From Podarcis cretensis (lineage: Eukaryota), in contig OX638165.1 of assembly GCA_951804945.1 (NCBI GenBank), positions 15,438,001 to 15,502,000 on the forward strand: DNA of 64,000 nt, given 5' to 3'. Made by a program: the position numbers and the translations under genes. The notes below the pieces were generated by a model, which was not told where the DNA came from, did not search any database, and was given only the letters and a program-made list of their open reading frames with translations. Below, piece by piece: positions 1,308 to 16,059 of this stretch (the first letter of the stretch is position 1; each line of letters opens with the position of its first letter).

Positions 1308-2582
1308 TGTTACGGAAAAATTCCGGGTGCTGAGTTTCCTTGCCACCCGGCTCGTCGGACAATGTCCGCGGGTCCTAGCGGAAAATGAGTTCAGCCGGAG
1401 ACAGGAGCAATGAACGGAGATCCCAAGTTTATTGCGCAACAGGTTCAATAAATGGCATTGAACCCCGAGAGTGGGGCGACATAAACTTTTAAAGGTTCCC
1501 TCCAGGTCCCAGAATACAGTGCAGAAAACGTCACATATACATCATAAAGAGGTGGGGTTACACGGATCAGCAGTACAAGAAATTGGGTGGTGGTTTACAC
1601 AAATCAAGGTGGGGGCTACAGAGATCAGCAGTATAATAAGGTAGGCAGAACAGAGATCAGCAGTATAATAAGGTAGGCAGAGCAGAGATCAGCAGTATAA
1701 TAAGGTAGGCAGAACAGAGATCAGCAGTATAATAAGGTAGGCAGAGCAGAGATCAGCAGTATAATAAGGTAGGCAGAGCAGAGATCAGCAGTATAATAAG
1801 GTAGGCAGAGCAGAGATTGCCCGGAGTGGTAGAGATATGCATAAACGTTTCCTGAGTACAGGTGATGGCAAGACAATGGCAGAGCCATGCATCGCCCATT
1901 ATCCGGTATTGTCCGGAGGAAGGGCTTGGCTGGACCATCCGACAGGATTAAGGTTTCCCTGAGTACGTGACCTGTCGGTTCGAGGATTATGGCGTCGAGG
2001 GTAGCATCATGGAGTCCGGAGGGAATCGAGTAGAATAACATTAAAATGGAGAAGATCGAAGCTTTGGCTGATTTTATATTATTTTCCGAAGTTTTCGGCT
2101 TCTTGCCGGTCAAGTGTATATTGTAAATTGAGAGCGGAAACAAATGGATACAATGTAACAGGAGTTTGACAGTTTTACGAGGTCGCTAGTTTCGGATCCA
2201 TTGTTGTAGCAGTGGGGGGCCGTCAACACCTTGTCAGGAGGTTAAATGAGGCGTGCAAGAGCTCCCTGAGCTAGCTCCTGCAGGGGAATGCACGTTCCTG
2301 ATTGGCTAAAACGCGGCCATTATGGTCAATGGGGAAACAGTATGATACGGTCTACTCATTAGAAATAGGGGAAACAAGGCTCAAGCGGAGGCTGTATATA
2401 GAAGGAAAGATATAAGGAAAAGATATTGTCTATAAAGTGGGGGGTATAGTGTGGTGCTTGTGCAACAGTGTGGGGGTTCAGGAGTCACGGCAGAGCTGGG
2501 TGCCACCGAGGTCATCGCCTCGGGCCCCGTAGTCACACGGAGGAGGGGTGAGGAAAGGTCCCCCCCCCCTCCTTCCGTATCA
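1308..2582 (-). repeat. ERV 3' LTR (1275 bp)
   Basis: Termini TGATACGG...CCGTAACA on the - strand; by eye identical to the 5' LTR except one C-run (10 vs 12); AATAAA at 1428-1433 (-); TTTAAAA TATA-like box ~1487-1493; preceded by PPT-like GAATGGGGGAC (2583-2593). Confidence 0.96.
1619..1817. repeat. 6 x 32-bp tandem repeat in U3 (copy in 5' LTR at 12460-12658)
   Basis: Unit CAGAGATCAGCAGTATAATAAGGTAGGCAGA(A/G) starting at 1619, 1651, 1683, 1715, 1747 and 1779. Confidence 0.95.
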
Positions 2583-2648: not shown

Positions 2649-4700
2649 CTATACCCCCGTGATTTCGTACTCCCCTTCCCCTAGGTGTCTCATTTGTACA
2701 TATTCAGGGAATATAGAGGCACTGTGGGAGCGGGAATAAGCTCGGATAGGAAGAGGGGTGGATTGAGTAGGACAGCGGAGGAGAGAGCAACAAGGAGAGA
2801 CACAGTGTATAGTACAGCAGAGCATTGAGGCACAAAGGATAATAATAAGGGCAGTGAGCAGTATCACCTTGAGTAACTGTCGGAGCCATCCGAGCTTAGG
2901 CAACCATCCCCACAAGTCTATGTCGGATAGACCCTCATGTCGTATCTCATTTAGTTTTCCTGCCAGCTCGTGGATATTGTTCAAATGTCCGGTAATATTC
3001 AAAGTCTGATCAGTCACATATGTACAACACTCAGTGCCTATTAGGGCACAGGTCCCTCCTTGACTGGACAGGAGAAAGTCCGTCGCAATCCTGGTCTGCA
3101 AACTAAGTTGTCTCACCTCTGACAGCTCCGACATCAGAGAGTCGGTGATTTGGGTTGCCTCTTGCATGAATTTCAGAAGGATGTCGGTAAGCCGGAGGAT
3201 GTCCACATGATTAGAGCCGGCCCCATAGGCAGGGAAGAGTGCCCGACCGACAGTCTCTCCGTTGGCGGCGACATCGGATAAGTCCGACAGTCCTTTTTGT
3301 TCTCTTTTATTTCTCTGCCTCCCAGGGGGTAGGTGTGGGACTACTCTAATGCCGGGGACAATGTATCCTACGAAGCAAGATCCTGACATATGAGGGCTTA
3401 CCCAGGTATATGCGCGATGGCCACATACCCAAAACAGGCCGCTGAGGTAAGACTCCATCCTCCCGGAGGCAAAAGCTTGGAGCAACATGGAGTCGGTGGG
3501 CTGAGGTAGCCAAGTAGGTGGGTGTCCGATGACAGTGGCCCAAGCAAGGGTGAGATTTTGGAAGGTGTGGGACCCAGTCACATCGGTAAGAGTGACGTGA
3601 CCAGTGGGCAAAAGTTCCAAGTTGGAGGGGCAGGTACTGGACCCAATGAAAGTTCCCTCTCCTGTGAAAATGCGGCAAAGGGGCCCTTTTGTAGAGCCAG
3701 TGAGGTAGAGGTATTGGTGGGTCAAATTCAAGGCCGTTAAATTCCAAGAGGTGACATCTCCGGATCGGAACTGTTCAGTGGTCACGGGTACAGGAACAAG
3801 GGGGAGACTTTGTTGGAGGTGGCTGGGTGCATGTGCGCATATCCAGCATTCAGGATAGGGTGCCTCTTTAGCCACCTGGCCCAAGAGTTTGATGTAAGAG
3901 TTCTGTTCCCAAGAGGAGAGGAGGTCTTTTCCTGGGAGAGAGGGATCGTTGCCGAGCTGACGGGGTGCCGTGCCGAGTGGATGAAGAGGGTCCGTGGTAT
4001 TAAGGAGTCGCCTATCCTTGGCTACGCCCCCGCATCTCAAAGGTCCAACGTGATCCCAAGTGGGAGAGCGTGAGGGATGTACCGGATGATACCATCCTTC
4101 TAAATATTCTGCCCCTCTCCAGTCGTGGACGACTCCAAGATTCCAGAGGCAACAGAACCCTCTCAAGCAAAGTCCTTGTAGTTGGGGTTTCTGGGGTTCT
4201 GGAGTCATGGAGACACATTGGAACCCGAAAATTAGGTTGTCAGAGGGGTCTGTTGTGTCGGTGTAGGACGATGTGGCCCCCCTTTTTGTGACTTCAGTCC
4301 AATTTGGGTTCCTTGAGACTTCTCCGTTGCTATAAAGAAAATGGGTCCCGTTCTTACAACTAAGGCGGTAGTAGGAGCGGTCAAGGGTGACTGTTGCCGA
4401 CCCAATCCGGTGTAGGCGTCCATCTCTGATGAAAAGTTCCCAGTACTCGTTGCCAGTTAATCGGGGCACAAGGGAATGGCGTAGCAATGTCCGAGACTCA
4501 GGGAGGCAGAAATCAAAGTCCCCCATTCGGTCCGGGTTTGACTTCCCGCCGGTTTCGACTCGATGGTAGCCTAAAAGGTGGTAATCCGTAGTTAATCCGG
4601 TGCAATGGTCCGTTGGTGTGACTGAGGATTGAGTCAAAGTCCCGTAATCAAGGAAGAGGAAGAAGAAATACATGATCGGAGTCTGGGGACAGCAAGGCAT
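2649..4700 (-). CDS. env: env (gamma-type), intact, ~683 aa from the first ATG
   Basis: Hydrophobic N-terminus, CWIC, furin site RNKR, heptad/ISD-like LQTRIATDFLL, CALIGTECC (CX6CC), TM helix, cytoplasmic tail. Confidence 0.95.
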   Translation of the reverse strand: MPCCPQTPIMYFFFLFLDYGTLTQSSVTPTDHCTGLTTDYHLLGYHRVETGGKSNPDRMGDFDFCLPESRTLLRHSLVPRLTGNEYWELFIRDGRLHRIGSATVTLDRSYYRLSCKNGTHFLYSNGEVSRNPNWTEVTKRGATSSYTDTTDPSDNLIFGFQCVSMTPEPQKPQLQGLCLRGFCCLWNLGVVHDWRGAEYLEGWYHPVHPSRSPTWDHVGPLRCGGVAKDRRLLNTTDPLHPLGTAPRQLGNDPSLPGKDLLSSWEQNSYIKLLGQVAKEAPYPECWICAHAPSHLQQSLPLVPVPVTTEQFRSGDVTSWNLTALNLTHQYLYLTGSTKGPLCRIFTGEGTFIGSSTCPSNLELLPTGHVTLTDVTGSHTFQNLTLAWATVIGHPPTWLPQPTDSMLLQAFASGRMESYLSGLFWVCGHRAYTWVSPHMSGSCFVGYIVPGIRVVPHLPPGRQRNKREQKGLSDLSDVAANGETVGRALFPAYGAGSNHVDILRLTDILLKFMQEATQITDSLMSELSEVRQLSLQTRIATDFLLSSQGGTCALIGTECCTYVTDQTLNITGHLNNIHELAGKLNEIRHEGLSDIDLWGWLPKLGWLRQLLKVILLTALIIILCASMLCCTIHCVSPCCSLLRCPTQSTPLPIRAYSRSHSASIFPEYVQMRHLGEGEYEITGV

Positions 4701-4781
4701 GATCGAGGAGAAGAAATTATAAAGTGTGCTAATCACGGAGTCGTCAGGGCGTGTCGTCAAAGAAGCTGTTATCGAAGGTAC

Positions 4782-5316
4782 GCTGTCAAAGACGCTGTCA
4801 AAGCGAGCTGTCAAGCGCGCTGTCAGAGGTGTACTGTCAAAGGCGCTCTGTCAGAGGAGCCGTCAAAGCTAGCTGTCAAGGCGCGCTGTCAAAGGCGCGC
4901 TGTCAAAGGCGTGCTGTCAAAGGAGCTGTCAAAGGCGGTGTCCAAGCAGCTGTCAGAGGAGCTGTCAAAAGAGCTGTCAAAGGCGCGCTGTCAAAGGCGC
5001 GCTGTCAAAGGAGCTGTCAAAGGCGCGCTGTCGAAGGCGTGCTGTCAGAGGCGTGCTGTCAGAGGAGCTGTCAAAGCTAGCTGTCAAAGGCGCGCTGTCA
5101 AAGGCGCGCTGTCAAAGGAGCTGTCAAAGGCGCGCTGTCAGAGGAGCTGTCAAAGCTAGCTGTCAAAGGCGCGCTGTCAAAGGCGCGCTGTCAAAGGAGC
5201 TGCCAAAGGCGCTGTCCAAGCAGCTGTCAGAGGAGCTGTCAATAGAGCTGTCAAAGGCGCGCTGTCAAAGGCGCGCTGTCAAAGGAGCTGTCAAAGGCGC
5301 GCTGTCAAAGGCGCGC
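4782..5316. repeat. Array of ~41 degenerate 12-14 bp units (GCTGTCAAAGG(CGC/A)) between pol and env
   Basis: About 41 GCTGTC-type cores counted by eye; reads (CCTTTGACAGC)n on the viral sense strand. Confidence 0.95.
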
Positions 5317-8300
5317 TTTAAGCGTAGTTTGATGGCCGTGGGATCTGGGATGATCTCAGACGTCCAGATGGGTGGATCTGTGCTCGATCCGGTCTGTTGG
5401 GCCCGATTCTGGCCCCGGTCTGCTGGTCCGGTCTGTTGGGCCCGATTCTGGCCCCGATCTGCTGGTCCGGTCTGTTGGGCCCGATTCTGGCCCCGATCTG
5501 CTGGTCCGGTCTGTTGGGCCCGATTCTGGCCCCGATCTGCTGGTCCGGTCTGTTGGTCGTCGTTGTCGTCGATATATGAGGTTGGTGGAGTAGGAGGGGT
5601 CGAAAAAGTGAAGTCCTCGCCGAGGTCTCCCTCCGTCTCTTGAGGGGGGGGCGTCGACTTACACCTGGTATGGTGTAACCATGAGTGCTTCTCACCTATT
5701 TTCACGGCGGTTGGCGATGTGAGGAGAATTTGGTAGGGACCTTCCCACGCTGGCTGAAGGAGTGCCCTCTGATAGACTTTGACAAGGATCCAATCGCCTG
5801 GTTTGAAGGAGTGTGCCTGGACGTCGGTGGGTAGATTTTGTCCTTCGATGGCCGCGTAGTGGTGGAGACGTTGAAGCTGTGTCTGGAGCTGAATGACATA
5901 ATTAGTGAGTTCTGCTTCCCCCAGTTCAAGTTCTGAGAGGGGAAACAGAGTGTTGTAAATGGGAGGGGGTCTCCCAAATAGGAGTTCGTATGGGGATAGT
6001 TTCAATGGTCCAGTTGGGGCACTTCGTATGTTATGGAGAACTAGTGGAAGGGCATTTACCCATTTTAGTCCAGTGAGTTTGCAGAGCTTTCCTAGTTGTG
6101 TTTTGATTTCTTGGTTCATGCGCTCTACTTGGCCGGAAGATTGTGGGTGATAGGGCGTATGAAGGTCCCATTTTATTTGTAAGGCCTTGGCCACTAATTG
6201 TACTATTTGAGCGGTGAAATGAGTTCCTCTGTCACTGTCTAGTCGACGGGGAACCCCAAATCGGGGAATAATGTCGTGTAGGAGGGCTCTGGCCACTACA
6301 GAGGCGGTAGGTTTTCTACAGGGGAATCCCTCTACCCAGGAGGAGAGTTTATCCACTATGATCAGAGCGTGTTTGAAACCCTGACAGTGCGGTAAGTCAA
6401 TAAAATCCAGCTGTAGACTTTCAAAGGGAACGAATGCCCACAGTCTGGCTCCTGGTGGTGCTCTAGGTTGTCGTTTGGGATTAAAGGAGCTACAGGTAAC
6501 ACAGTTCTTTGACGCTGCTGTGGCCGCTACCGCAAGTCCAGGAGCGTACCAGGATCTTTTAACGTGCTCTATCAGTCTCCCTTTTCCCCAGTGTGTACGT
6601 TGATGGAGGACCCTCACCAATTTTGGAACCCAAGCTTTTGGAAGGACAGTCCTTCCGTCGGGGAGAGTCCAAACGTCATTTTGTTCGATCGCACCCACAG
6701 AACGCCAGAGAGTCTTTTCCTCCTCGGGGGCTTCTTTGTAAATTTGTGTGGGATCAATATGAAGTGGGATTTGTAAGGCTTGAAATTCCGATTCATTGTT
6801 TGGGAGGCGGAGCGCGGCTGATTGGGCTGCCTTATCAGCTCGCCTGTTACCCCTTGAGACGGGGTCTCTACCCCGGGTATGCGCTTTGCAATGGACTACT
6901 GCGATTGCGGTAGGTAGATGGATAGCGGTCAGTAGTCTCTCTACTAAAGCGGAATGTGAAATTTTGGAGCCTGCAGCGGTTAAGAAGCCTCTTTGTAACC
7001 AGATCTGGCCAGTTGTATGGACTAATCCGAAACAGTACTTACTGTCCGTGTAGATTGTAGTTCGCTTGCCTTCACTGATCTCGCAGGCCCGTATGAGCGC
7101 TATTAGTTCTGCAGCTTGGGCGCTATATTGTGGGTTTATCGGATTTGATTCTATTACTTCGAAGTCGGTGACTACAGCATATCCTGTTTTCCTTTCCCCG
7201 TCCACAACCTTTGAACTGCCGTCTGTATAAAGTATTAAATCTGGGTTTTCTAATGGTAGGTGGTCTAGGTCTTCTCTGGGTTTCTCGGCTTGACGGACTA
7301 TGGTGGCGCAGTCATGGTGTGGGGTTCCATCATCAGGGAGAGGGAGGAGGGTGGCTGGGTTGAGGGAGTTAACCCTCTTTATAGTGACATTTGATGGGGT
7401 CAATAGAAGGGCCTCATACTTGTTTAATCGAGAGTTTGAAAAGTGATGGCTGCCTCTGAGGGTTAATAGGGTGGAGACGGAATGGGGCACATGGATGATG
7501 ATTTCATGTCCCAGAACCGTTTCCTGAGCCTTTTCGAGGAGGACCGCTGCGGCAGCTATGGCTCTTAGGCAGCTTACTGCGCCTTTCGCGGTGGTGTCTA
7601 ATTGAAGACTGTAATATGCTATAGGTCTCTCTTGGTCTCGGAAAGACTGTGTCAATACCCCAGAAGCTACTCCCATTTGCTCATGGATAAACAAGTTAAA
7701 TGGGATCCTGTAGTCGGGTAAGCCTAGCGCAGGGGCAGATCTTAGTTCTCGCTTTAAACGTTCAAAAGATTTGTATGCGTCTTCCTCCCAAACTAGGGTG
7801 TCTGGATGATCTTGGCGGGTCATAGCGGAGAGGGGTTTTGTTATTTCGCTGTATCCCGCGATCCAGGCTCTGCAGAAGCCAGCCATACCTAAAAATCCCC
7901 GAAGTTGTCGTTTAGTTTTTGGAAGGGGAATCTTAGTGACTGCTTCTATTCTATCGGTCGCTAAGCTTCGGGTGCCTACTCCTAGGATATGCCCGAGGTA
8001 CTTTACTTCTTGCTTGCAGTATTGCAACTTTTTTGGTGACACCTTATGTCCTTTTCTGGCTAGTTCTGCAAGGAGATGTTTGGTGTCTATCTTACATGCT
8101 TCCTCATTGGTGGAACAGAGAAGGAGGTCATCCACGTAAAGCAAGAGGGTGGAGTTTGCAGGGAGCTGGACATCCTGTAAATCTTGGTGCAAGATGGCCG
8201 AAAATATTGCAGGTGATTCCACGTATCCCTGGGGTAACCTCGTCCAGGTTAATTGACTGGGTCCCCAGGTAAAGGCGAAAAGAAATTGGCTGGCTGGGTC

Positions 8301-9176
8301 CAGGGGGATACTAAAGAAGGCGGAGCACAAGTCTGCGGCAGTGTACCATTTGGTTTCTGCTGGAATGGCGTTCAAGAGGGAATTGGGATTGCCGACTACT
8401 GGATGGCGGGGTATTACAAATTGATTCACCAGTCTCAGATCCTGGACAAAACGGTACCGGACTGGGGCCCCTTCTGTCGATGGTTTCTTTACTGGAAGTA
8501 CTGGGGTATTGCAAGGGGATGCGCAAGGGACTAGGATGCCCTTCTCGAGGAAGTCCTCTATCATAGGAGTTAGTCCCTCTATGGCTTCTTTAGGTAGGGG
8601 ATATTGCTTTGTGCACGGAAAGGGTAGGTCTGTTCTATAGACGATTTTGACTGGAGCTGCCGACAACAAAAGACCTACTGAAGTTGACTCAGTGCCCCAT
8701 AGAGAAGAGGGCAATTCATTTTCCAGTTCTGGAGGGAGTTCCGGGAACTGCCTGTCTGTTTTGGCCTCTTCAATTATTCCCTGGAAGGCGGGGATGGATT
8801 CCTCTGGCATATGTAAGTAGATGCCTTCCTCAGAACATTTAATGGTGGCATTTAATTTGCAAAGTAGGTCCCTTCCTAAGAGGTTCACCGGGCTGTTGGT
8901 TAAGAGGAAGGTATGTTCCGCTAGTAGGGGTCCGAGGGTAACTTTAGTCGGACGCGATAGCGGGCAAGTGCGGGGTATCCCATCCAGACCCATGACTTTT
9001 CTGGTCTCCGGACTTGGTTCCAGGTGGCTATCCGTTAAGGTGGAGTAAGTGGCTCCTGTGTCCAATAAACATTGATATGGATGGCCATCTATCTCAATGG
9101 TACAGAATGGTTCTTCGGAGGATAACGTTAAGATTGGGCAGATAGTTTGGGTTTGGTTGGGATCCCCTTCTAATTG
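5265..9176 (-). CDS. pol: pro-pol (protease, RT, RNase H, integrase), in frame with gag after a single TGA
   Basis: LLDTGA protease site, LPQG and YVDD RT motifs, YTDGS RNase H, HHCC and D-D-E integrase motifs, WEGPY; no internal stops. Confidence 0.96.
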   Translation of the reverse strand, partial: QLEGDPNQTQTICPILTLSSEEPFCTIEIDGHPYQCLLDTGATYSTLTDSHLEPSPETRKVMGLDGIPRTCPLSRPTKVTLGPLLAEHTFLLTNSPVNLLGRDLLCKLNATIKCSEEGIYLHMPEESIPAFQGIIEEAKTDRQFPELPPELENELPSSLWGTESTSVGLLLSAAPVKIVYRTDLPFPCTKQYPLPKEAIEGLTPMIEDFLEKGILVPCASPCNTPVLPVKKPSTEGAPVRYRFVQDLRLVNQFVIPRHPVVGNPNSLLNAIPAETKWYTAADLCSAFFSIPLDPASQFLFAFTWGPSQLTWTRLPQGYVESPAIFSAILHQDLQDVQLPANSTLLLYVDDLLLCSTNEEACKIDTKHLLAELARKGHKVSPKKLQYCKQEVKYLGHILGVGTRSLATDRIEAVTKIPLPKTKRQLRGFLGMAGFCRAWIAGYSEITKPLSAMTRQDHPDTLVWEEDAYKSFERLKRELRSAPALGLPDYRIPFNLFIHEQMGVASGVLTQSFRDQERPIAYYSLQLDTTAKGAVSCLRAIAAAAVLLEKAQETVLGHEIIIHVPHSVSTLLTLRGSHHFSNSRLNKYEALLLTPSNVTIKRVNSLNPATLLPLPDDGTPHHDCATIVRQAEKPREDLDHLPLENPDLILYTDGSSKVVDGERKTGYAVVTDFEVIESNPINPQYSAQAAELIALIRACEISEGKRTTIYTDSKYCFGLVHTTGQIWLQRGFLTAAGSKISHSALVERLLTAIHLPTAIAVVHCKAHTRGRDPVSRGNRRADKAAQSAALRLPNNESEFQALQIPLHIDPTQIYKEAPEEEKTLWRSVGAIEQNDVWTLPDGRTVLPKAWVPKLVRVLHQRTHWGKGRLIEHVKRSWYAPGLAVAATAASKNCVTCSSFNPKRQPRAPPGARLWAFVPFESLQLDFIDLPHCQGFKHALIIVDKLSSWVEGFPCRKPTASVVARALLHDIIPRFGVPRRLDSDRGTHFTAQIVQLVAKALQIKWDLHTPYHPQSSGQVERMNQEIKTQLGKLCKLTGLKWVNALPLVLHNIRSAPTGPLKLSPYELLFGRPPPIYNTLFPLSELELGEAELTNYVIQLQTQLQRLHHYAAIEGQNLPTDVQAHSFKPGDWILVKVYQRALLQPAWEGPYQILLTSPTAVKIGEKHSWLHHTRCKSTPPPQETEGDLGEDFTFSTPPTPPTSYIDDNDDQQTGPADRGQNRAQQTGPADRGQNRAQQTGPADRGQNRAQQTGPADRGQNRAQQTGSSTDPPIWTSEIIPDPTAIKLRLKRAFDSAPLTAPLTARL
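5389..5556. repeat. 4.3 x 39-bp tandem repeat in the integrase C-terminal tail (QQTGPADRGQNRA)
   Basis: Units start at 5389, 5428, 5467, 5506 and 5545; in frame with pol. Confidence 0.95.
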
Positions 9177-10631
9177 TCAATAACTCCCTTGATCGTCCGG
9201 AGGGGGTTGGTTAGGGGGGTGTAAGGGAGGTGCTGTAGCGTTGGCCCACGGGCGGGGGGATATAGTGATCGCGGGCATTTGAGCCTTTGGTCCTGGTAAG
9301 GGTCTTTGGGTTTGAGCAGGTATAGTTGGAGGTGGCGGTGGTTTGTGGGGGGCAGAGGCTGGCTGAGGGTTGTAAGTGATGGGCGGTGGGTTTCCATATC
9401 CATAGGTTGCATTTGGATGTGGTGTCCCGTAGATCGTGTTATTGAGGTACGGGCAAAACCGCCTAATGTGGCCTTCTTCTTGGCAATAAAAGCATCCGGT
9501 GGTGGTAGGTCCCCAAGGCCTATGGGGATTGGGATTGGGGTTTCCTCCTCCTCGGATTCCCCTCCCTCGGTTGAAGCCCCTGCCCCTACTAGGGTTTAAC
9601 TCCATACTAAGGGCTAGGACTTGTTCGGTTTCAGGTTTGGGGTCCCTTTTCTTCCTCTCATCTCGTGAGTTATAGACTGATTTAGCGATGGAGAGGATTT
9701 CGCTGATACTTTTCCCATCGTATCCTATCTGTAAATTTAAGGCTTTTCTAATATCGGGACAGGCTTGATCTTTAAAGAAGCCTTTCACTATGACTTCGTG
9801 CTGAGAGTTCTCTGGATCAATTCCTCCCCAGGTCTTAATGGCGGATACAAGTCTCGTATAGTAATCGGACGGGTGTTCATTTGCTCCTTGTAGCACAGTC
9901 TGGACTTTCGTCCAGTTAACGGTGCGTTGTCCGGCGGCCTTGATGCCGTCTAAGATTGCCTTTTTAAACAAATTTAAGCACCAGATTCCGTTTGTGGTAT
10001 TATAATCCCATGTCGGTTCGGTGCGCAAGCATTGGGCTGTGAGCGCCGCTAACCCTACCGGGCGTCCTGTCTGATAATCCGGGAGTTCAATCATTTCTCC
10101 GGCTTTGGCTAAAATATCTGCCTTCTCAGCCTCGTTGAAAAGTGCGTTCAGGAGAACGTGAACGTCTGGCCAGGTCGGCTTATGGGTTGAAAATATTGCG
10201 CTGACCTGACGGTGACATTTATCTGGGTCGTCCCTCAATGATGGCATTTGGTTCGACCAAGTTACCAGGTCTGCCGTATAGAATGGTTGGTGGGTATATA
10301 TCATTCGGGGGGCTCCGTCCGGCTGCAACGGTGGGATTGGCAGAGCCCTTAAGGGCATCTGGACGGCCGTAGAGTCCAATTGCCTGGACGTCCCTGGGGT
10401 CTCTTCGGGTCTTTCTAAAGGGAGTGAGGTTCCTAGGGTAGCATTTTGTACCTCCCTGGCTAAGGAGTTGATGTTTTCCGTGATAGCATTCTGTATCTCC
10501 CTTGCTCGTGTCAAAGGGCTGATGTTCTCTGAGGTCGTACCCTGAACTTCTCTAGCCGGTGGGAGGGAGCTAAGGTTTTCCGAGGTAGCATTTTGCATTC
10601 CTTTGGCTCGTTGCCTAGTTATGATTTGACT
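9177..10631 (-). CDS. gag: gag 3' part (spacer repeats, CA, NC, Pro-rich tail)
   Basis: MHR-like VLQGANEHPSDYYTRL, single CCHC knuckle CFYCQEEGHIRRFC; ends at TGA 9177-9179; frame is open back to the G-run at 10632-10641. Confidence 0.92.
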   Translation of the reverse strand, partial: SQIITRQRAKGMQNATSENLSSLPPAREVQGTTSENISPLTRAREIQNAITENINSLAREVQNATLGTSLPLERPEETPGTSRQLDSTAVQMPLRALPIPPLQPDGAPRMIYTHQPFYTADLVTWSNQMPSLRDDPDKCHRQVSAIFSTHKPTWPDVHVLLNALFNEAEKADILAKAGEMIELPDYQTGRPVGLAALTAQCLRTEPTWDYNTTNGIWCLNLFKKAILDGIKAAGQRTVNWTKVQTVLQGANEHPSDYYTRLVSAIKTWGGIDPENSQHEVIVKGFFKDQACPDIRKALNLQIGYDGKSISEILSIAKSVYNSRDERKKRDPKPETEQVLALSMELNPSRGRGFNRGRGIRGGGNPNPNPHRPWGPTTTGCFYCQEEGHIRRFCPYLNNTIYGTPHPNATYGYGNPPPITYNPQPASAPHKPPPPPTIPAQTQRPLPGPKAQMPAITISPRPWANATAPPLHPPNQPPPDDQGSY

Positions 10632-11185
10632 CCCCCCCCCCGTGCCCCTTGTTCCTCTGCCTCTTCGCTGTTATCATTATCCTGGTCATCACTTGGGGCG
10701 GGTGGAACAGTTTGTCTGTAGTAAAAGGGGATAAGCGTTTGTTCCACGGAGTCGTCTATAGGGTGTCCTTCGTAAGGGGGGGGCAGAGGAGACCTCCCAT
10801 GATTTAGGATGGGCAGTTGGTAGGTCGCTCCTCCCTTTGCAACGTGGAGCAGTCCTCGGACGGCTTCGAAAGCGGCTAAATACCCTAGTTGACGGGGTTT
10901 TTCTTCCATCAAGTAGTTTCTTAGATGCCTCAGGCGGTCTTCATTAAAGGAGCCCCCTGTTGGCCACCGTAACTCGGGCTTTGCAGAGGCAGTCCCGGCC
11001 GGCCAGGTTTCTTTACATAGATCTTCTAATTTCTGCTTCGACAGCAAGTTGTGCCCGGGGATAGACTTCCAATAAGAGATGACGAATTCAAGAGGGGAGT
11101 CGGGGTCCCTCTGGGATTCAGATGGCTTCCTTGAAGCCTTCTTCCCGGAGTGAGCCCGCTCATGTTTAGAAGCTTGGGTACCCAT
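10619..11185 (-). CDS. gag: gag 5' part (MA plus p12-like region); frameshifted relative to the 3' part at a G10 run
   Basis: MGTQASK myristoylation-type start, gamma-like MA (LC..TWP, WP..GSF), PPPY late domain. Confidence 0.88.
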   Translation of the reverse strand: MGTQASKHERAHSGKKASRKPSESQRDPDSPLEFVISYWKSIPGHNLLSKQKLEDLCKETWPAGTASAKPELRWPTGGSFNEDRLRHLRNYLMEEKPRQLGYLAAFEAVRGLLHVAKGGATYQLPILNHGRSPLPPPYEGHPIDDSVEQTLIPFYYRQTVPPAPSDDQDNDNSEEAEEQGARGGGVKS

Positions 11186-12128: not shown

Positions 12129-12146
12129 GCCCCACGTTGGGCGCCA
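12129..12146 (-). promoter_or_regulatory. Primer-binding site complementary to tRNA-Lys1,2 (CUU)
   Basis: TGGCGCCCAACGTGGGGC, 2 nt after the 5' LTR end. Confidence 0.95.
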
Positions 12147-13170
12147 AATGTTACGGAAAAATTCCGGGTGCTGAGTTTCCTTGCCACCCGGCTCGTCGGA
12201 CAATGTCCGCGGGTCCTAGCGGAAAATGAGTTCAGCCGGAGACAGGAGCAATGAACGGAGATCCCAAGTTTATTGCGCAACAGGTTCAATAAATGGCATT
12301 GAACCCCGAGAGTGGGGCGACATAAACTTTTAAAGGTTCCCTCCAGGTCCCAGAATACAGTGCAGAAAACGTCACATATACATCATAAAGAGGTGGGGTT
12401 ACACGGATCAGCAGTACAAGAAATTGGGTGGTGGTTTACACAAATCAAGGTGGGGGCTACAGAGATCAGCAGTATAATAAGGTAGGCAGAACAGAGATCA
12501 GCAGTATAATAAGGTAGGCAGAGCAGAGATCAGCAGTATAATAAGGTAGGCAGAACAGAGATCAGCAGTATAATAAGGTAGGCAGAGCAGAGATCAGCAG
12601 TATAATAAGGTAGGCAGAGCAGAGATCAGCAGTATAATAAGGTAGGCAGAGCAGAGATTGCCCGGAGTGGTAGAGATATGCATAAACGTTTCCTGAGTAC
12701 AGGTGATGGCAAGACAATGGCAGAGCCATGCATCGCCCATTATCCGGTATTGTCCGGAGGAAGGGCTTGGCTGGACCATCCGACAGGATTAAGGTTTCCC
12801 TGAGTACGTGACCTGTCGGTTCGAGGATTATGGCGTCGAGGGTAGCATCATGGAGTCCGGAGGGAATCGAGTAGAATAACATTAAAATGGAGAAGATCGA
12901 AGCTTTGGCTGATTTTATATTATTTTCCGAAGTTTTCGGCTTCTTGCCGGTCAAGTGTATATTGTAAATTGAGAGCGGAAACAAATGGATACAATGTAAC
13001 AGGAGTTTGACAGTTTTACGAGGTCGCTAGTTTCGGATCCATTGTTGTAGCAGTGGGGGGCCGTCAACACCTTGTCAGGAGGTTAAATGAGGCGTGCAAG
13101 AGCTCCCTGAGCTAGCTCCTGCAGGGGAATGCACGTTCCTGATTGGCTAAAACGCGGCCATTATGGTCAA

Positions 13171-14944
13171 ATCAAATCAAATCAAATCAAAACTTTATTA
13201 GCAAAGCCAACAGGCCACAGCTAGACAAGAATTAAAAATAAAAATAAAAATAAGAATAAAAAGAAGAAAAGAACAGGCAAAAGGGGGTCCGTCAGATGAA
13301 CAAGTCTGTCACTCAGATGGTGGCCCTCAATTTCACAGCTCTCTCGATGTACCTCGCGACCTTCTCTGTTATCTGACTATCCGTATCAGATAAGAGAAAA
13401 TACAGTGTAATGTCTGGTGAACGGCCGGGGTTGGAGAGAATAAGTGGAGTAATAATCTCATTCCTTAGGTCTTTGTAAATAGGGCAAGATAGAAGGACAT
13501 GGGACACTGTTTCCGTGTTACCATCTCCACATGGGCAGAGTCGTTTTTCAAATGGAGTCTTTTGGTAACGACCTTCGAGTACGGCAGAAGGAAGAACATC
13601 CCATCTAGCCAATGTAAAGGCACGTCTGTATTTTGGGATGGTTAATTTAGACAAATATGAGGCTGGGGAGTCAAAATGAGAAGGGGGAAAGTAGGTATAC
13701 CATGGGCACAGTTTCTTTAAGATGGTCAGGTTGTTTTGCCGTTCAATGTCTTTCAGGCGCTGGCCAATTAGACTCTTTGCTTTAATGAGGCCCATTGATA
13801 GTAGGGACTGTGAATGCAAACCGCATGTAAGGAGTTTTTGATGCACAGTTTTGAACCACTTGCTTTTGTGAGAATCTTGCATTACTAGAGGCAGTAGACC
13901 AGGTGGGTTTAGATTAAGACGAAGCCAGTAGTTGAATGTTCTTTGCCAAGTCTGAGTTTCTACAGATGGAAGGCAGGCCTCGAGTCGTAATGCTGCGTTT
14001 GGAACACAGGGGGGGACGCCGAATATCTGCCTTAGAAATTTAGACTGAACAGTTTCAAGACTGGAGCAGTGGTTCCCCGTCCAGATTTGTGCCCCATACA
14101 GTAACTGCGCCAAAGGTTTTGCTTGAAAAACTTCAAGGGCTGCTGGGATGTATCTGCCCCCCTTTGTGTAAAAGAAGCGGGACAGCATCTTAATACTTTG
14201 AGCTGCTTTTTCTTTGGCACATTTTTGATGGACATCCCAGGACCCGGTCGACTGGAACACGATACCCAGATATTTGAAGGCTTTAACCTGTTCAATTGTC
14301 TGGTTATCCATCCTCCAGCTGTACTGTCTGTGTTTCCTTGCAAAAACCATAGTTTTGGTTTTCTGATAGTTTATTGCCAGTTGCTCTCTCCTACAGTATG
14401 CTGAAAATTCACCTATGAGCCTATTTAAGCCTATTCTTGTTCGAGATAGGAGTATCGCATCATCAGCATACAAAAGTACTGATATTGATTTGTCAGCCAG
14501 TTTGGGGGCGTGGAAGTCCGGAGATGACAAACAGTTAACCATATCATTGATGTAAAAGTTAAATAGAACTGGGGCCAGGATGCAACCTTGCTTGACCCCC
14601 TTGCTGACAGGAACTGGTCCTATAAGATGGCCATTTAACGAAGTTCTTACATGCAGCACCGTGTCTTTATATAGACAGCTGATCAGGAATAATAGTCTTT
14701 TGTCTATACTTGATGTGCTCAATTTATCCCAGAGTCTTGCACGTGGAATTGAATCGAAGGCAGCCTTTAGATCGATAAAGGCTGCATATAGCACCCCGCG
14801 GGATTTTTTGGCATATTTATCAATTAAATAGGCTAGGGTGAAGCAGTGGTCTATGGTGGATCTGCCTTGCCTGAAACCCGCTTGCTCTTCCGCTAGAATA
14901 GCTTCAGTTTCCAGCCAGCTAGTTAGCTTAATATAAAGATGTTT
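13171..14944 (-). mobile_element. 5'-truncated non-LTR retrotransposon (RTE-X-like) inserted in the 5' LTR
   Basis: 16-bp TSD CGGCCATTATGGTCAA (13155-13170 / 14945-14960); open RT frame (QAGFR, FIDLKAAFDS, GVKQG, LLYADD) with C-terminal CPCG..HVLLSC; AATAAA then (TTTGA)n tail. Clade assignment is tentative. Confidence 0.92.
13313..14944 (-). CDS. LINE ORF2 fragment (RT plus C-terminal zinc knuckle), uninterrupted from the truncation point to the stop
   Basis: The 493-aa ORF extends in frame upstream (KHLYIKLTSWLETEAILAEEQAGFRQGRSTIDH) to the junction. Confidence 0.88.
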   Translation of the reverse strand, partial: KHLYIKLTSWLETEAILAEEQAGFRQGRSTIDHCFTLAYLIDKYAKKSRGVLYAAFIDLKAAFDSIPRARLWDKLSTSSIDKRLLFLISCLYKDTVLHVRTSLNGHLIGPVPVSKGVKQGCILAPVLFNFYINDMVNCLSSPDFHAPKLADKSISVLLYADDAILLSRTRIGLNRLIGEFSAYCRREQLAINYQKTKTMVFARKHRQYSWRMDNQTIEQVKAFKYLGIVFQSTGSWDVHQKCAKEKAAQSIKMLSRFFYTKGGRYIPAALEVFQAKPLAQLLYGAQIWTGNHCSSLETVQSKFLRQIFGVPPCVPNAALRLEACLPSVETQTWQRTFNYWLRLNLNPPGLLPLVMQDSHKSKWFKTVHQKLLTCGLHSQSLLSMGLIKAKSLIGQRLKDIERQNNLTILKKLCPWYTYFPPSHFDSPASYLSKLTIPKYRRAFTLARWDVLPSAVLEGRYQKTPFEKRLCPCGDGNTETVSHVLLSCPIYKDLRNEIITPLILSNPGRSPDITLYFLLSDTDSQITEKVARYIERAVKLRATI

Positions 14945-16059
14945 CGGCCATTATGGTCAATGGGGAAACAGTATGATACGGTCTACTCATTAGAAATAGG
15001 GGAAACAAGGCTCAAGCGGAGGCTGTATATAGAAGGAAAGATATAAGGAAAAGATATTGTCTATAAAGTGGGGGGTATAGTGTGGTGCTTGTGCAACAGT
15101 GTGGGGGTTCAGGAGTCACGGCAGAGCTGGGTGCCACCGAGGTCATCGCCTCGGGCCCCGTAGTCACACGGAGGAGGGGTGAGGAAAGGTCCCCCCCCCC
15201 CCTCCTTCCGTATCATCACACAGGATCGCTTCCAAATAAGTTGTATTTAAAGCAGGTCCACTGACACGAATTAAGCTAGCCATGTCCATTAATTTCAACC
15301 GGTCTACTCTATAAGTAGGGCTAACTTTTGCAAAAGACCCAGACCTTTTGAGTAAAACTGTGGGATCTGCTAACACAAGATAACCACCAGCTTGGACAGC
15401 TTTAAAGAGCTGTTCAGAAAGATGCTTAGGAGATTGAGGTAATTTTAATCCATATTAGTATTTTAACTATTGTATGTTTTAAAAGTAGTGTTGTGATTTT
15501 TCCCCCTTGCATTTTACTGCTTCAACTTTTGTAAACCGCTTTGAGGGTGTTTAATTTTTTGTAGTATTCTTTTTTTACAACCAAACAGTGTATAAATTTT
15601 ATGAAATAAATAAACAATAAAAGCTCAGACAAGTTGCTGGAAGGCAAGGTAATGCGCTAACTGCAGGATCACTGTGCCAGTATCACTGAATACCAGTTAT
15701 TGGGAGGCAAGAGTGGGAGAGGGCTGTTGTCCTCCTCTCATAAGACAAGCCCTGATGGATCAGGCCCATTGCCCATCTAATCCAGCATCCTTGTTCTCAT
15801 TCTGGACAATAGATGCCAATGGGACGCTTGAAAGCAGGACCTGTGTGCCACGGCGACTCTCCTCAGCAATCGCTAGAAACTTAACAGTCTCCAACAGTGG
15901 AGGGGAGAACATAGCCATTGTGGCTGGTAGCCACAGATTAGCAGCCTTCTGTTCCATGAATTTGCCAAATCCCTTCTTAAAGCCATCCAAGATGGCGGCC
16001 ATCAGGTCATGTTGTCCCGCCATCTGGTTAACCTCTTTCCCCCTCCCCTTCTCCTGCAG

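Follow-up and report, generated by a model that had tools for sequence, protein, structure and literature searches.

How does a lizard provirus make Pol when its gag and pol frames are parted by a single in-frame TGA? The window (the whole 64-kb stretch of DNA analysed here) carries such an element. A first-pass annotation had explained it, against an MLV baseline, by opal readthrough at a purely linear, plant-virus-like signal. The anatomy of the element, the junction and the structure predicted downstream were analysed in turn.

Provirus anatomy and classification

All parts of the provirus lie on the minus strand of the window.

12149..15215, minus strand: 5′ LTR, with a LINE insertion inside
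12129..12146, minus strand: primer binding site, which we take to be of the tRNA-Lys type
9177..11185, minus strand: gag (Gag_p30 capsid and one CCHC finger)
5265..9176, minus strand: pro-pol open frame of 1303 codons (PR, RT, RNase H, IN), from the ORF and its Pfam domains
9060..9062, minus strand: codon of the protease catalytic Asp (DTGA), within the loop of the stem described below and upstream of the first pol ATG
2649..4850, minus strand: env open frame (TLV_coat), 733 codons from stop to stop
1308..2582, minus strand: 3′ LTR of 1275 nt, with a purine-rich tract before it

Protease, RT, RNase H and integrase were all matched by Pfam in the pro-pol frame, and no second retroviral pol was found elsewhere in the 64-kb window. 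The LINE within the 5′ LTR (13171–14944) has a 16-bp target duplication. The two LTRs show no substitution in 1275 aligned positions and one 2-nt gap. The gag frame is broken near 10620–10670, and this gag-damaged copy is a record of the ancestral signal only.

In an RT tree (53 rows, midpoint root), the element was split from the gamma side (96/92) and grouped with class I sequences of fish, amphibians and reptiles. The lacertid clade (98/90) adjoins a Pelodiscus sequence (98/88). The viral contig scans turned up no WDSV-like locus. The element is a young, epsilon-like class I, non-gamma ERV of lacertid lizards, close to Podarcis sequences. The MLV baseline was thus misplaced, as the element groups with epsilon-like ERVs.

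The gag stop and the route to Pol

Two short features of the junction are needed for what follows.

9177..9179, minus strand: TGA that ends gag, a candidate readthrough codon sharing the frame of pro-pol
9171..9176, minus strand: CAATTA hexamer directly after the stop, fitting the type I CAR-YYA readthrough motif

The end of gag had been read correctly: positions 9185..9168 of the minus strand are AGT TAT TGA CAA TTA GAA. The protease also lies, as described earlier, in the gag frame with no further stop; pol is open to 5265 and, counted from the gag stop, LLDTGA begins at codon 37, with the catalytic Asp at codon 39. The C-terminal part of gag has 91 residues from the CCHC finger to the stop. 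Six of 10 related CCHC-finger proteins terminate 86–91 residues past the finger, and Gag relatives of 60–86% identity have the same finger-to-end distance. Because related Gag proteins terminate at the same place, the TGA is the natural gag stop. It was unchanged in the junction-bridging contigs of three of four runs (X1, X3 and X4), the fourth run being without coverage of the site.

Readthrough was favoured because no other route to Pol was evident. The first pol ATG is codon 62, past the catalytic Asp, and the two other frames are closed around the junction. The final 150 nt of gag contain no slippery heptamer, and between the stop and DTG there is no AG after a pyrimidine tract that could serve as a splice acceptor. 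Protein searches for junction-spanning relatives returned nothing but gene models in which the junction is left out, and no fusion protein with a natural linker. Judged from the sequence, Pol is most plausibly made by readthrough, which very probably occurs at this UGA. The opal readthrough proposed for Gag-Pol has good support in the anatomy and in class I retrovirus biology. It would be very surprising if Pol were instead made from a spliced message or by reinitiation, or if the stop were a private nonsense change with a meaningless context. Some gag-UGA-pol elements, such as Tca2, did lack local readthrough in reporter tests (PMC2194720), readthrough is unverified in epsilonretroviruses, where the cis-elements are unclear (PMC13517186), and gag is damaged elsewhere in this copy. 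Against this, the stop is common to near-identical copies and to the Gag ends of relatives, and neither an ATG ahead of the catalytic Asp, nor an acceptor, nor a natural-linker fusion protein was found in the searches described above.

The hexamer was unchanged in copies at least 99% identical, the only ones with DNA across the junction, and was absent from the distant relatives L001–L003. In the provirus's own coding frames, in-frame CAR-YYA makes up 11 of 2532 dicodons and CAA-TTA 4 of 2532. A chance match at a fixed position thus has a frequency of about 0.4% (CAR-YYA 0.43%; exact hexamer 0.16%), a figure that would be raised by allowing for other known leaky contexts. Published experiments indicate that the type I motif also works with UGA. 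In mammalian cells, readthrough at UGA-CAAUUA placed in the OPRL1 context was about 15%, UGA and UAG being similar, and each of the six positions matters (PMC4132726). In plants, yeast and mammals alike, the CAR-YYA hexamer needs no 3′ structure to be active (PMC13517186, section 2.5). A role of the hexamer in readthrough of the lizard element is likely. A CARYYA context at a retroviral gag-pol junction was not found in the published literature, and a gain of the hexamer by convergence with tobamoviruses is plausible from the sequence. The stop context of SIRE1 is reportedly CARYYA-like.

A predicted long-range stem downstream of the stop

The earlier remark that no obvious pseudoknot follows the stop was borne out. 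An H-type screen gave no candidate here, whereas all 11 gammaretrovirus loci had candidates, seven of them ending at +57/+58. An Rfam search gave a single chance-level match (E 0.8). The lack of downstream structure implied by that remark did not hold. The suggested fold of the 100 nt downstream gave a divided answer: folds of 100–120 nt show no structure (z from +0.1 to +1.7 for 120 nt and for 60–150 nt), but longer folds predict a long-range stem. Short folds are blind to this stem because its 3′ arm lies beyond their reach, and taken alone they would have upheld the first-pass view in error.

9168..9176, minus strand: 9-nt spacer from stop to stem, hexamer included, predicted mostly unpaired
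9139..9167, minus strand: 5′ arm of the predicted long-range stem, +10..+38 after the stop
8972..9003, minus strand: 3′ arm of the predicted long-range stem, +174..+205, codons RKVMGLDGIP

The codons under the 3′ arm presumably encode the protease flap. The predicted stem has 25 bp, all Watson–Crick and 15 of them G-C, and closes a loop of about 135 nt. Pair probabilities were 0.83–1.00, and the identical 25 pairs were obtained in 15/15 fold windows. The duplex energy was –36.2 kcal/mol (z = –3.84 against synonymous resampling, 0/500 as good) and the stem had 22 long-range pairs >0.9, a count matched by 0/548 other provirus positions and 1/200 synonymous resamples; these p-values are optimistic because the metrics were picked after the stem had been seen in the window. 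In a looser duplex test, 31/2744 provirus positions (about 1%) fold equally well, and 6/548 positions reach the level of the stem by the expected-pairs measure. A second subfamily (about 84% identical, with 22 differences, 16 of them listed) was covered over part of the 3′ arm and is silent on covariation.

Distant loci were obtained by a search of metagenome contigs (four loci). Loci were dropped when they had no readable junction (L004, L005) or shared contigs with earlier loci (L006, L018–L029), and L030 was dropped because the stop ahead of its protease is doubtful as an end of gag. L016 was excluded from duplex resampling; its rows in the pseudoknot screen and pair count are weak, with a misplaced junction. 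Close-relative DNA was obtained neither from viral contigs (by protein or junction pattern) nor from genome contigs. L001 (36% identity) has the stop context TGA-AGA and a predicted stem whose 3′ arm likewise falls on the flap codons and whose helix is unbroken for 10 bp from +10. It was equalled by 6/500 duplex resamples, 0/247 positions and 0/200 synonymous resamples. The start of this stem, +2, falls within the ribosome footprint, and the outer pair drops to 0.52–0.66 once upstream sequence is included. For L003 (TAG-GGG) the predicted stem is weaker (0/243 positions, 1/200 resamples); it has 0 to 22 pairs depending on the fold window and fails the duplex test (187/500). In L002 (TAG-GGA), an old frameshifted copy, no stem was found by folds, duplex test or pair count. 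The 11 gammaretrovirus loci had 0–6 long-range pairs >0.9 each. Stems reaching this region are thus predicted in two distant relatives of the epsilon-like kind whose stop contexts differ, robustly in one and more weakly in the other, and in none of the 11 gammaretrovirus loci.

A lineage-wide stimulator might be formed by the extended stem (with UGA-C), the CARYYA match being incidental or minor and set by a Gln-Leu needed near the NC/protease boundary. The recurrence of the stem in two of three relatives whose stop contexts vary is in line with this, as is MLV, where readthrough was the same after UAG was changed to UGA with the structure kept (PMC4178896). The low background of the exact hexamer in the provirus argues against it and, as all six positions matter, the hexamer would be active even if born by chance. 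This explanation was considered rather improbable. A somewhat better case, though still an unlikely one, can be made for UGA-CAAUUA driving readthrough alone, as in tobamoviruses, the stem being a chance fold or having some other task, such as folding or packaging the genome or shielding the long gag 3′ UTR from NMD. The activity of the hexamer without 3′ structure, and the 15% obtained with UGA in one mammalian context, would be sufficient by themselves. Tobamoviruses have the hexamer without extended 3′ conservation (PMC3159437), and therefore the hexamer may not need the stem. The duplex energy of the stem is attained at about 1% of provirus positions, and structures adjacent to the gag stop can have other roles, for instance the Rous sarcoma virus RNA stability element (PMC2925335). 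On the other side, the 9-nt spacer places the onset of the stem exactly where readthrough stimulators start, the stem outdoes its synonymous controls, and relatives without the hexamer are predicted to have comparable stems at the homologous place.

What the sequence itself shows is the stop in frame with pol, the hexamer, a Gag end common to the family and the lack of an MLV pseudoknot candidate. The reading preferred for them, with a probability of about one half, is a bipartite cassette in which UGA and CAAUUA are joined by an extended stem of the alphavirus type. Most ribosomes would terminate at the UGA and release Gag, and a few percent would insert an amino acid there and produce Gag-Pro-Pol; at UGA, Trp, Cys or Arg would be expected (PMC13517186). 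CAAUUA in the mRNA entry channel would weaken termination. The stem, starting at +10 and paired with protease-flap codons across a gap of about 135 nt, would add stimulation as in alphaviruses. The purely linear signal proposed at first is probably not the whole of it, given the 25-bp stem predicted from 9 nt past the stop, and a contribution of this stem to readthrough is fairly probable.

More tentatively, the epsilon-like retroviruses of fish, amphibians and reptiles may share an undescribed long-range stem stimulator, in which the bases after the stop pair with protease-flap codons. It would take the role of the MLV pseudoknot, with stop contexts varying freely (UAG-G, UGA-A). The lizard lineage would then have acquired the exact tobamovirus hexamer on its own, to yield a hybrid of UGA, type I motif and extended stem that is unreported in retroviruses. 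Within about 220 nt, this locus pins both candidate elements down to single bases, L001 being an independent second case in a distant relative. The junction gives a concrete guess at how enzymes are produced in a little-studied group of retroviruses and, if the hexamer is active, a use of the type I motif by a vertebrate virus.

Comparison with known readthrough systems

As in epsilonretroviruses and their aquatic relatives, gag and pol lie in one frame parted by a single stop. UGA is known at this place in SSSV (UGA-AGA), ZFERV (UGA-CGA) and cane-toad RMEV (UGA-AGU) (PMC13517186), and in the frog XtERV-S (PMC8278194), but none of the listed contexts is CAR-YYA. WDSV and snakehead retrovirus are without a gamma-type pseudoknot (PMC3835772), and an 'extended stem-loop' is given for epsilonretroviruses, unreferenced, in a 2012 review table (PMC3542737). 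Accessory ORFs of the WDSV kind were not identified in the lizard element in a shallow look.

The MLV type III cassette consists of UAG-G, an 8-nt purine spacer and a compact H-type pseudoknot, whereas the lizard junction has UGA-C and no pseudoknot candidate. The two share their purpose, the position between gag and pro and a structure 8–9 nt past the stop, predicted in the lizard element. Gammaretroviruses form a separate clade, with a TAG-G context and a stop 27 codons ahead of the catalytic Asp in 10 of 11 loci, against 39 here.

Type I signals (UAG-CAR-YYA) are found in tobamoviruses, benyviruses, pomovirus CP and Providence virus, which is an insect virus. The lizard element has the exact CAA-UUA directly past the stop, but with UGA in place of UAG, no A at –1 (TAT before the stop) and, as a vertebrate retrovirus, a lizard host. 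The motif is described as confined to plant viruses in a 2026 review (PMC13517186), and Providence virus is included under type I in the 2012 table (PMC3542737). One benyvirus with UAG-CAA-UUA requires an additional 3′ element (PMC3159437); the 9-nt spacer and 3′ stem-loop are alike, but the benyvirus hairpin is compact and the stem predicted here has a 135-nt loop.

Type II signals, those of alphaviruses (VEEV/SINV) and coltivirus, combine UGA-CGG or UGA-CUA with an extended stem-loop. Alphaviruses have a spacer of 8–12 nt and a loop of 101–154 nt (PMC3159437), so that UGA-C, the spacer and the predicted loop size are alike. The lizard element differs by CAA in place of CGG/CUA and by a predicted stem of 25 bp, about twice their 10–12. 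The junction is a variation on known recoding and not a new mechanism.

The junction and its provirus

The gag end of the window reads TGA-CAA-TTA with pol in frame, as the first-pass annotation had it, and the junction is confirmed as real. The protease, placed by that annotation about 38 codons on with no further stop, was found there: its catalytic Asp is codon 39 downstream of the gag stop. The features are listed below.

1308-2582 and 12149-15215, minus strand: LTRs; the 5' LTR (12149-15215) is broken by a 1.8-kb LINE
2649-4850, minus strand: env frame, open
9179-9177, minus strand: gag stop, read from the sequence as AGT TAT TGA then CAA TTA GAA
Ending at 5265, minus strand: pro-pol open frame, 1303 codons after the gag stop, with protease, RT, RNase H and integrase domains

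The provirus, on the minus strand, looks complete. Its LTRs differ by no substitution across 1275 aligned positions and by a single 2-nt gap, so the insertion is young. The gag frame of the window copy is disrupted near 10620-10670, at a homopolymer run. The break may be genuine or an assembly error, the latter being possible because the sole LTR difference is likewise one of homopolymer length. The 4-base LTR flanks (1304-1307 and 15216-15219) agree at 3/4 positions, an imperfect target-site duplication despite identical LTRs. The LINE (13171-14960) is 5'-truncated, with a 545-codon RT frame, a pentamer-repeat tail and a 16-bp target duplication; since it sits in an LTR of a provirus with substitution-free LTRs, its family was active very recently. 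Each LTR holds a 154-codon stop-to-stop frame (1721-2185 and 12562-13026, minus strand) without Pfam match, adjoining a 32-nt tandem repeat (6.2 copies) and possibly an accessory ORF or a chance frame. Tandem repeats occupy 4781-5317 and 5388-5556: a 14-nt unit, repeated about 41 times, forms an array in the pol-env gap that contains both the pol frame end and the env frame start, and a 39-nt repeat (4.3 copies) lengthens the integrase C-terminus. The primer binding site is presumably of the tRNA-Lys type.

The nearest Pol matches come from Podarcis (87-90%) and from Zootoca. In an RT tree (53 rows, midpoint root), the provirus lies in a lacertid clade, with a turtle sequence adjacent, and groups with fish, amphibian and reptile class I elements, the gammaretroviruses splitting off (96/92). 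Epsilon-like retroviruses are therefore the proper comparison, rather than the MLV baseline of the first-pass annotation.

The gag stop and the route to Pol

A CCHC finger was present in 10 of the 18 related proteins examined. Six of these ten (60-86% identity) terminate 86-91 residues past the finger (window: 91); the remaining four appear to be gene models leaving the frame or skipping the junction. Among the matches listed, the stop letters are unvaried in the bridging contigs of runs X1, X3 and X4, which are at least 99% identical, so that the stop is common to the copies and conservation is not implied; X6 lies outside the site. Over 8856-8993, runs X1, X3 and X4 also contain a second subfamily of this ERV, about 84% identical.

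Neither an internal ATG, a frameshift nor a spliced pol found support: the first ATG in pol is codon 62, a search of the final 150 nt of gag gave no slippery site, and the stretch from the gag stop to the protease active site gave no splice acceptor. Readthrough is thus the route left for Pol; it is given as the general rule for gamma- and epsilonretroviruses in the available part of a 2026 review (PMC13517186). The opal readthrough earlier proposed to yield Gag-Pol is very likely, judging from the shared stop and with no other route evident, and a junction without readthrough is improbable.

Most ribosomes would terminate at the UGA, and in some a near-cognate tRNA would decode it, giving Gag-Pro-Pol. 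The CAAUUA hexamer should weaken termination. In an OPRL1 context, UGA-CAAUUA is reported to give about 15% readthrough, with all six bases mattering and UGA about equal to UAG (extracts of PMC4132726). In the coding frames of the provirus, CAR-YYA accounts for 11/2532 dicodons and CAA-TTA for 4/2532; at this rarity a chance match at one fixed site is unlikely, although several other leaky contexts would have drawn notice too.

A predicted long-range stem

Folds of 60-150 nt after the stop gave no structure, and an H-type pseudoknot screen returned 0 candidates at the window junction versus one in each of the 11 gammaretrovirus junctions compared, in agreement with the earlier remark that no obvious pseudoknot follows. 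The proposed fold check over about 100 nt is likewise empty, but longer folds give a stem (positions counted after the gag stop).

+10..+38 (9167-9139), minus strand: 5' arm of the predicted stem, after a 9-nt spacer from the stop
+174..+205 (9003-8972), minus strand: 3' arm of the predicted stem, pairing with +10..+38

It has 25 pairs, all Watson-Crick and 15 of them G-C (pair probabilities 0.83-1.00), and was identical in 15/15 fold windows of sizes up to 600 nt. Whole-region folding gave z = -2.29 (3/200 shuffles). Under synonymous resampling with the protein fixed, its duplex energy (z = -3.84) was matched by 0/500 and its high-probability long-range pair count by 1/200. Against other provirus positions, strict measures gave 0/294 and 0/548, expected pairs gave 6/548 and a looser duplex test gave 31/2744; these window figures are optimistic because the measures were picked once the stem was known.

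Three other non-gamma junctions, from distant relatives, were readable. In L001 (36% identity; TGA-AGA), a stem is predicted between +2..+19 and +163..+179, with an unbroken 10-bp helix from +10, scoring 6/500, 1/294, 0/247 (8/247 on expected pairs) and 0/200. L003 (TAG-GGG) has a weaker predicted stem, about +15..+44 with +183..+210, at 0/243 and 1/200 on pair counts; the duplex test gave 187/500, and the stem changes with the size of the fold window. No stem was found in L002 (TAG-GGA, a frameshifted copy). Counted from the codon of the catalytic Asp, the 3' arm of the window stem occupies +59..+90, that of L001 +60..+76 and that of L003 +50..+77, on or just upstream of what we take to be the flap codons. 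High-probability long-range pairs number 0-6 in the 11 gamma loci versus 21-22 in the non-gamma stems, and 0/6 gamma loci were significant in the synonymous-resampling duplex test. The window, L001 and L003 are too diverged for covariation alignment.

On the salmon-sarcoma-virus-like contig of L001, the strong stem (3029-3207) lies directly 3' of the gag stop, its 3' arm on protease-flap codons, and a second TGA-AGA stands in frame in the pol-env gap (7190-7195). L002 (1437-1445) and L003 (2920-2928) are epsilon-like, group with fish and have MLV-like TAG-GG contexts; no clear MLV pseudoknot was found at either junction.

A bipartite model, UGA and hexamer acting with the long-range stem, is predicted from sequence and fold, with a probability of about one half. 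Of the purely linear signal first proposed, the hexamer stands, CAA TTA being in place; with a strong stem of alphavirus type predicted at the junction and again in relatives, it is doubtful that the hexamer drives readthrough alone. Readthrough driven by the stem with an incidental hexamer is less probable still, given how rarely the hexamer should fall there by chance.

Comparison with known readthrough systems

As far as the extracts of the cited papers go, gag-pol UGA occurs in SSSV (UGAAGA), ZFERV (UGACGA) and a cane-toad ERV (UGAAGU) (PMC13517186) and in XtERV-S (PMC8278194), and MLV tolerates UAG to UGA (PMC4178896). The L001 context is the same as that entered for SSSV. Fission-yeast retrotransposons are described with gag-pol TGA-CT. 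An opal stop at gag-pol is already known for the epsilon-like group.

In searches of the open-access literature, neither a retroviral gag-pol junction with CARYYA nor the junction of this lacertid family was found described; the exact TMV hexamer at such a junction appears to be new. The SIRE1 stop context is reportedly CARYYA-like. Stop suppression is described there at the pol-env boundary. Providence virus infects insects. It is listed as type I (UAG-CAR-YYA) in the accessible part of a 2012 table, where epsilonretroviruses stand, unreferenced, as UAG-R plus an extended stem-loop (PMC3542737). The available part of the 2026 review has animal viruses without type I readthrough and epsilon cis-elements as still unclear (PMC13517186), and extracts of PMC3835772 report no pseudoknot detected downstream of the WDSV and snakehead gag stops.

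In one benyvirus, UAG-CAA-UUA goes together with a required 3' element, and alphavirus stems have spacers of 8-12 nt and enclose 101-154 nt (both from part of PMC3159437). The stem predicted in the window would begin at the site of known readthrough stimulators, likewise after a short spacer.
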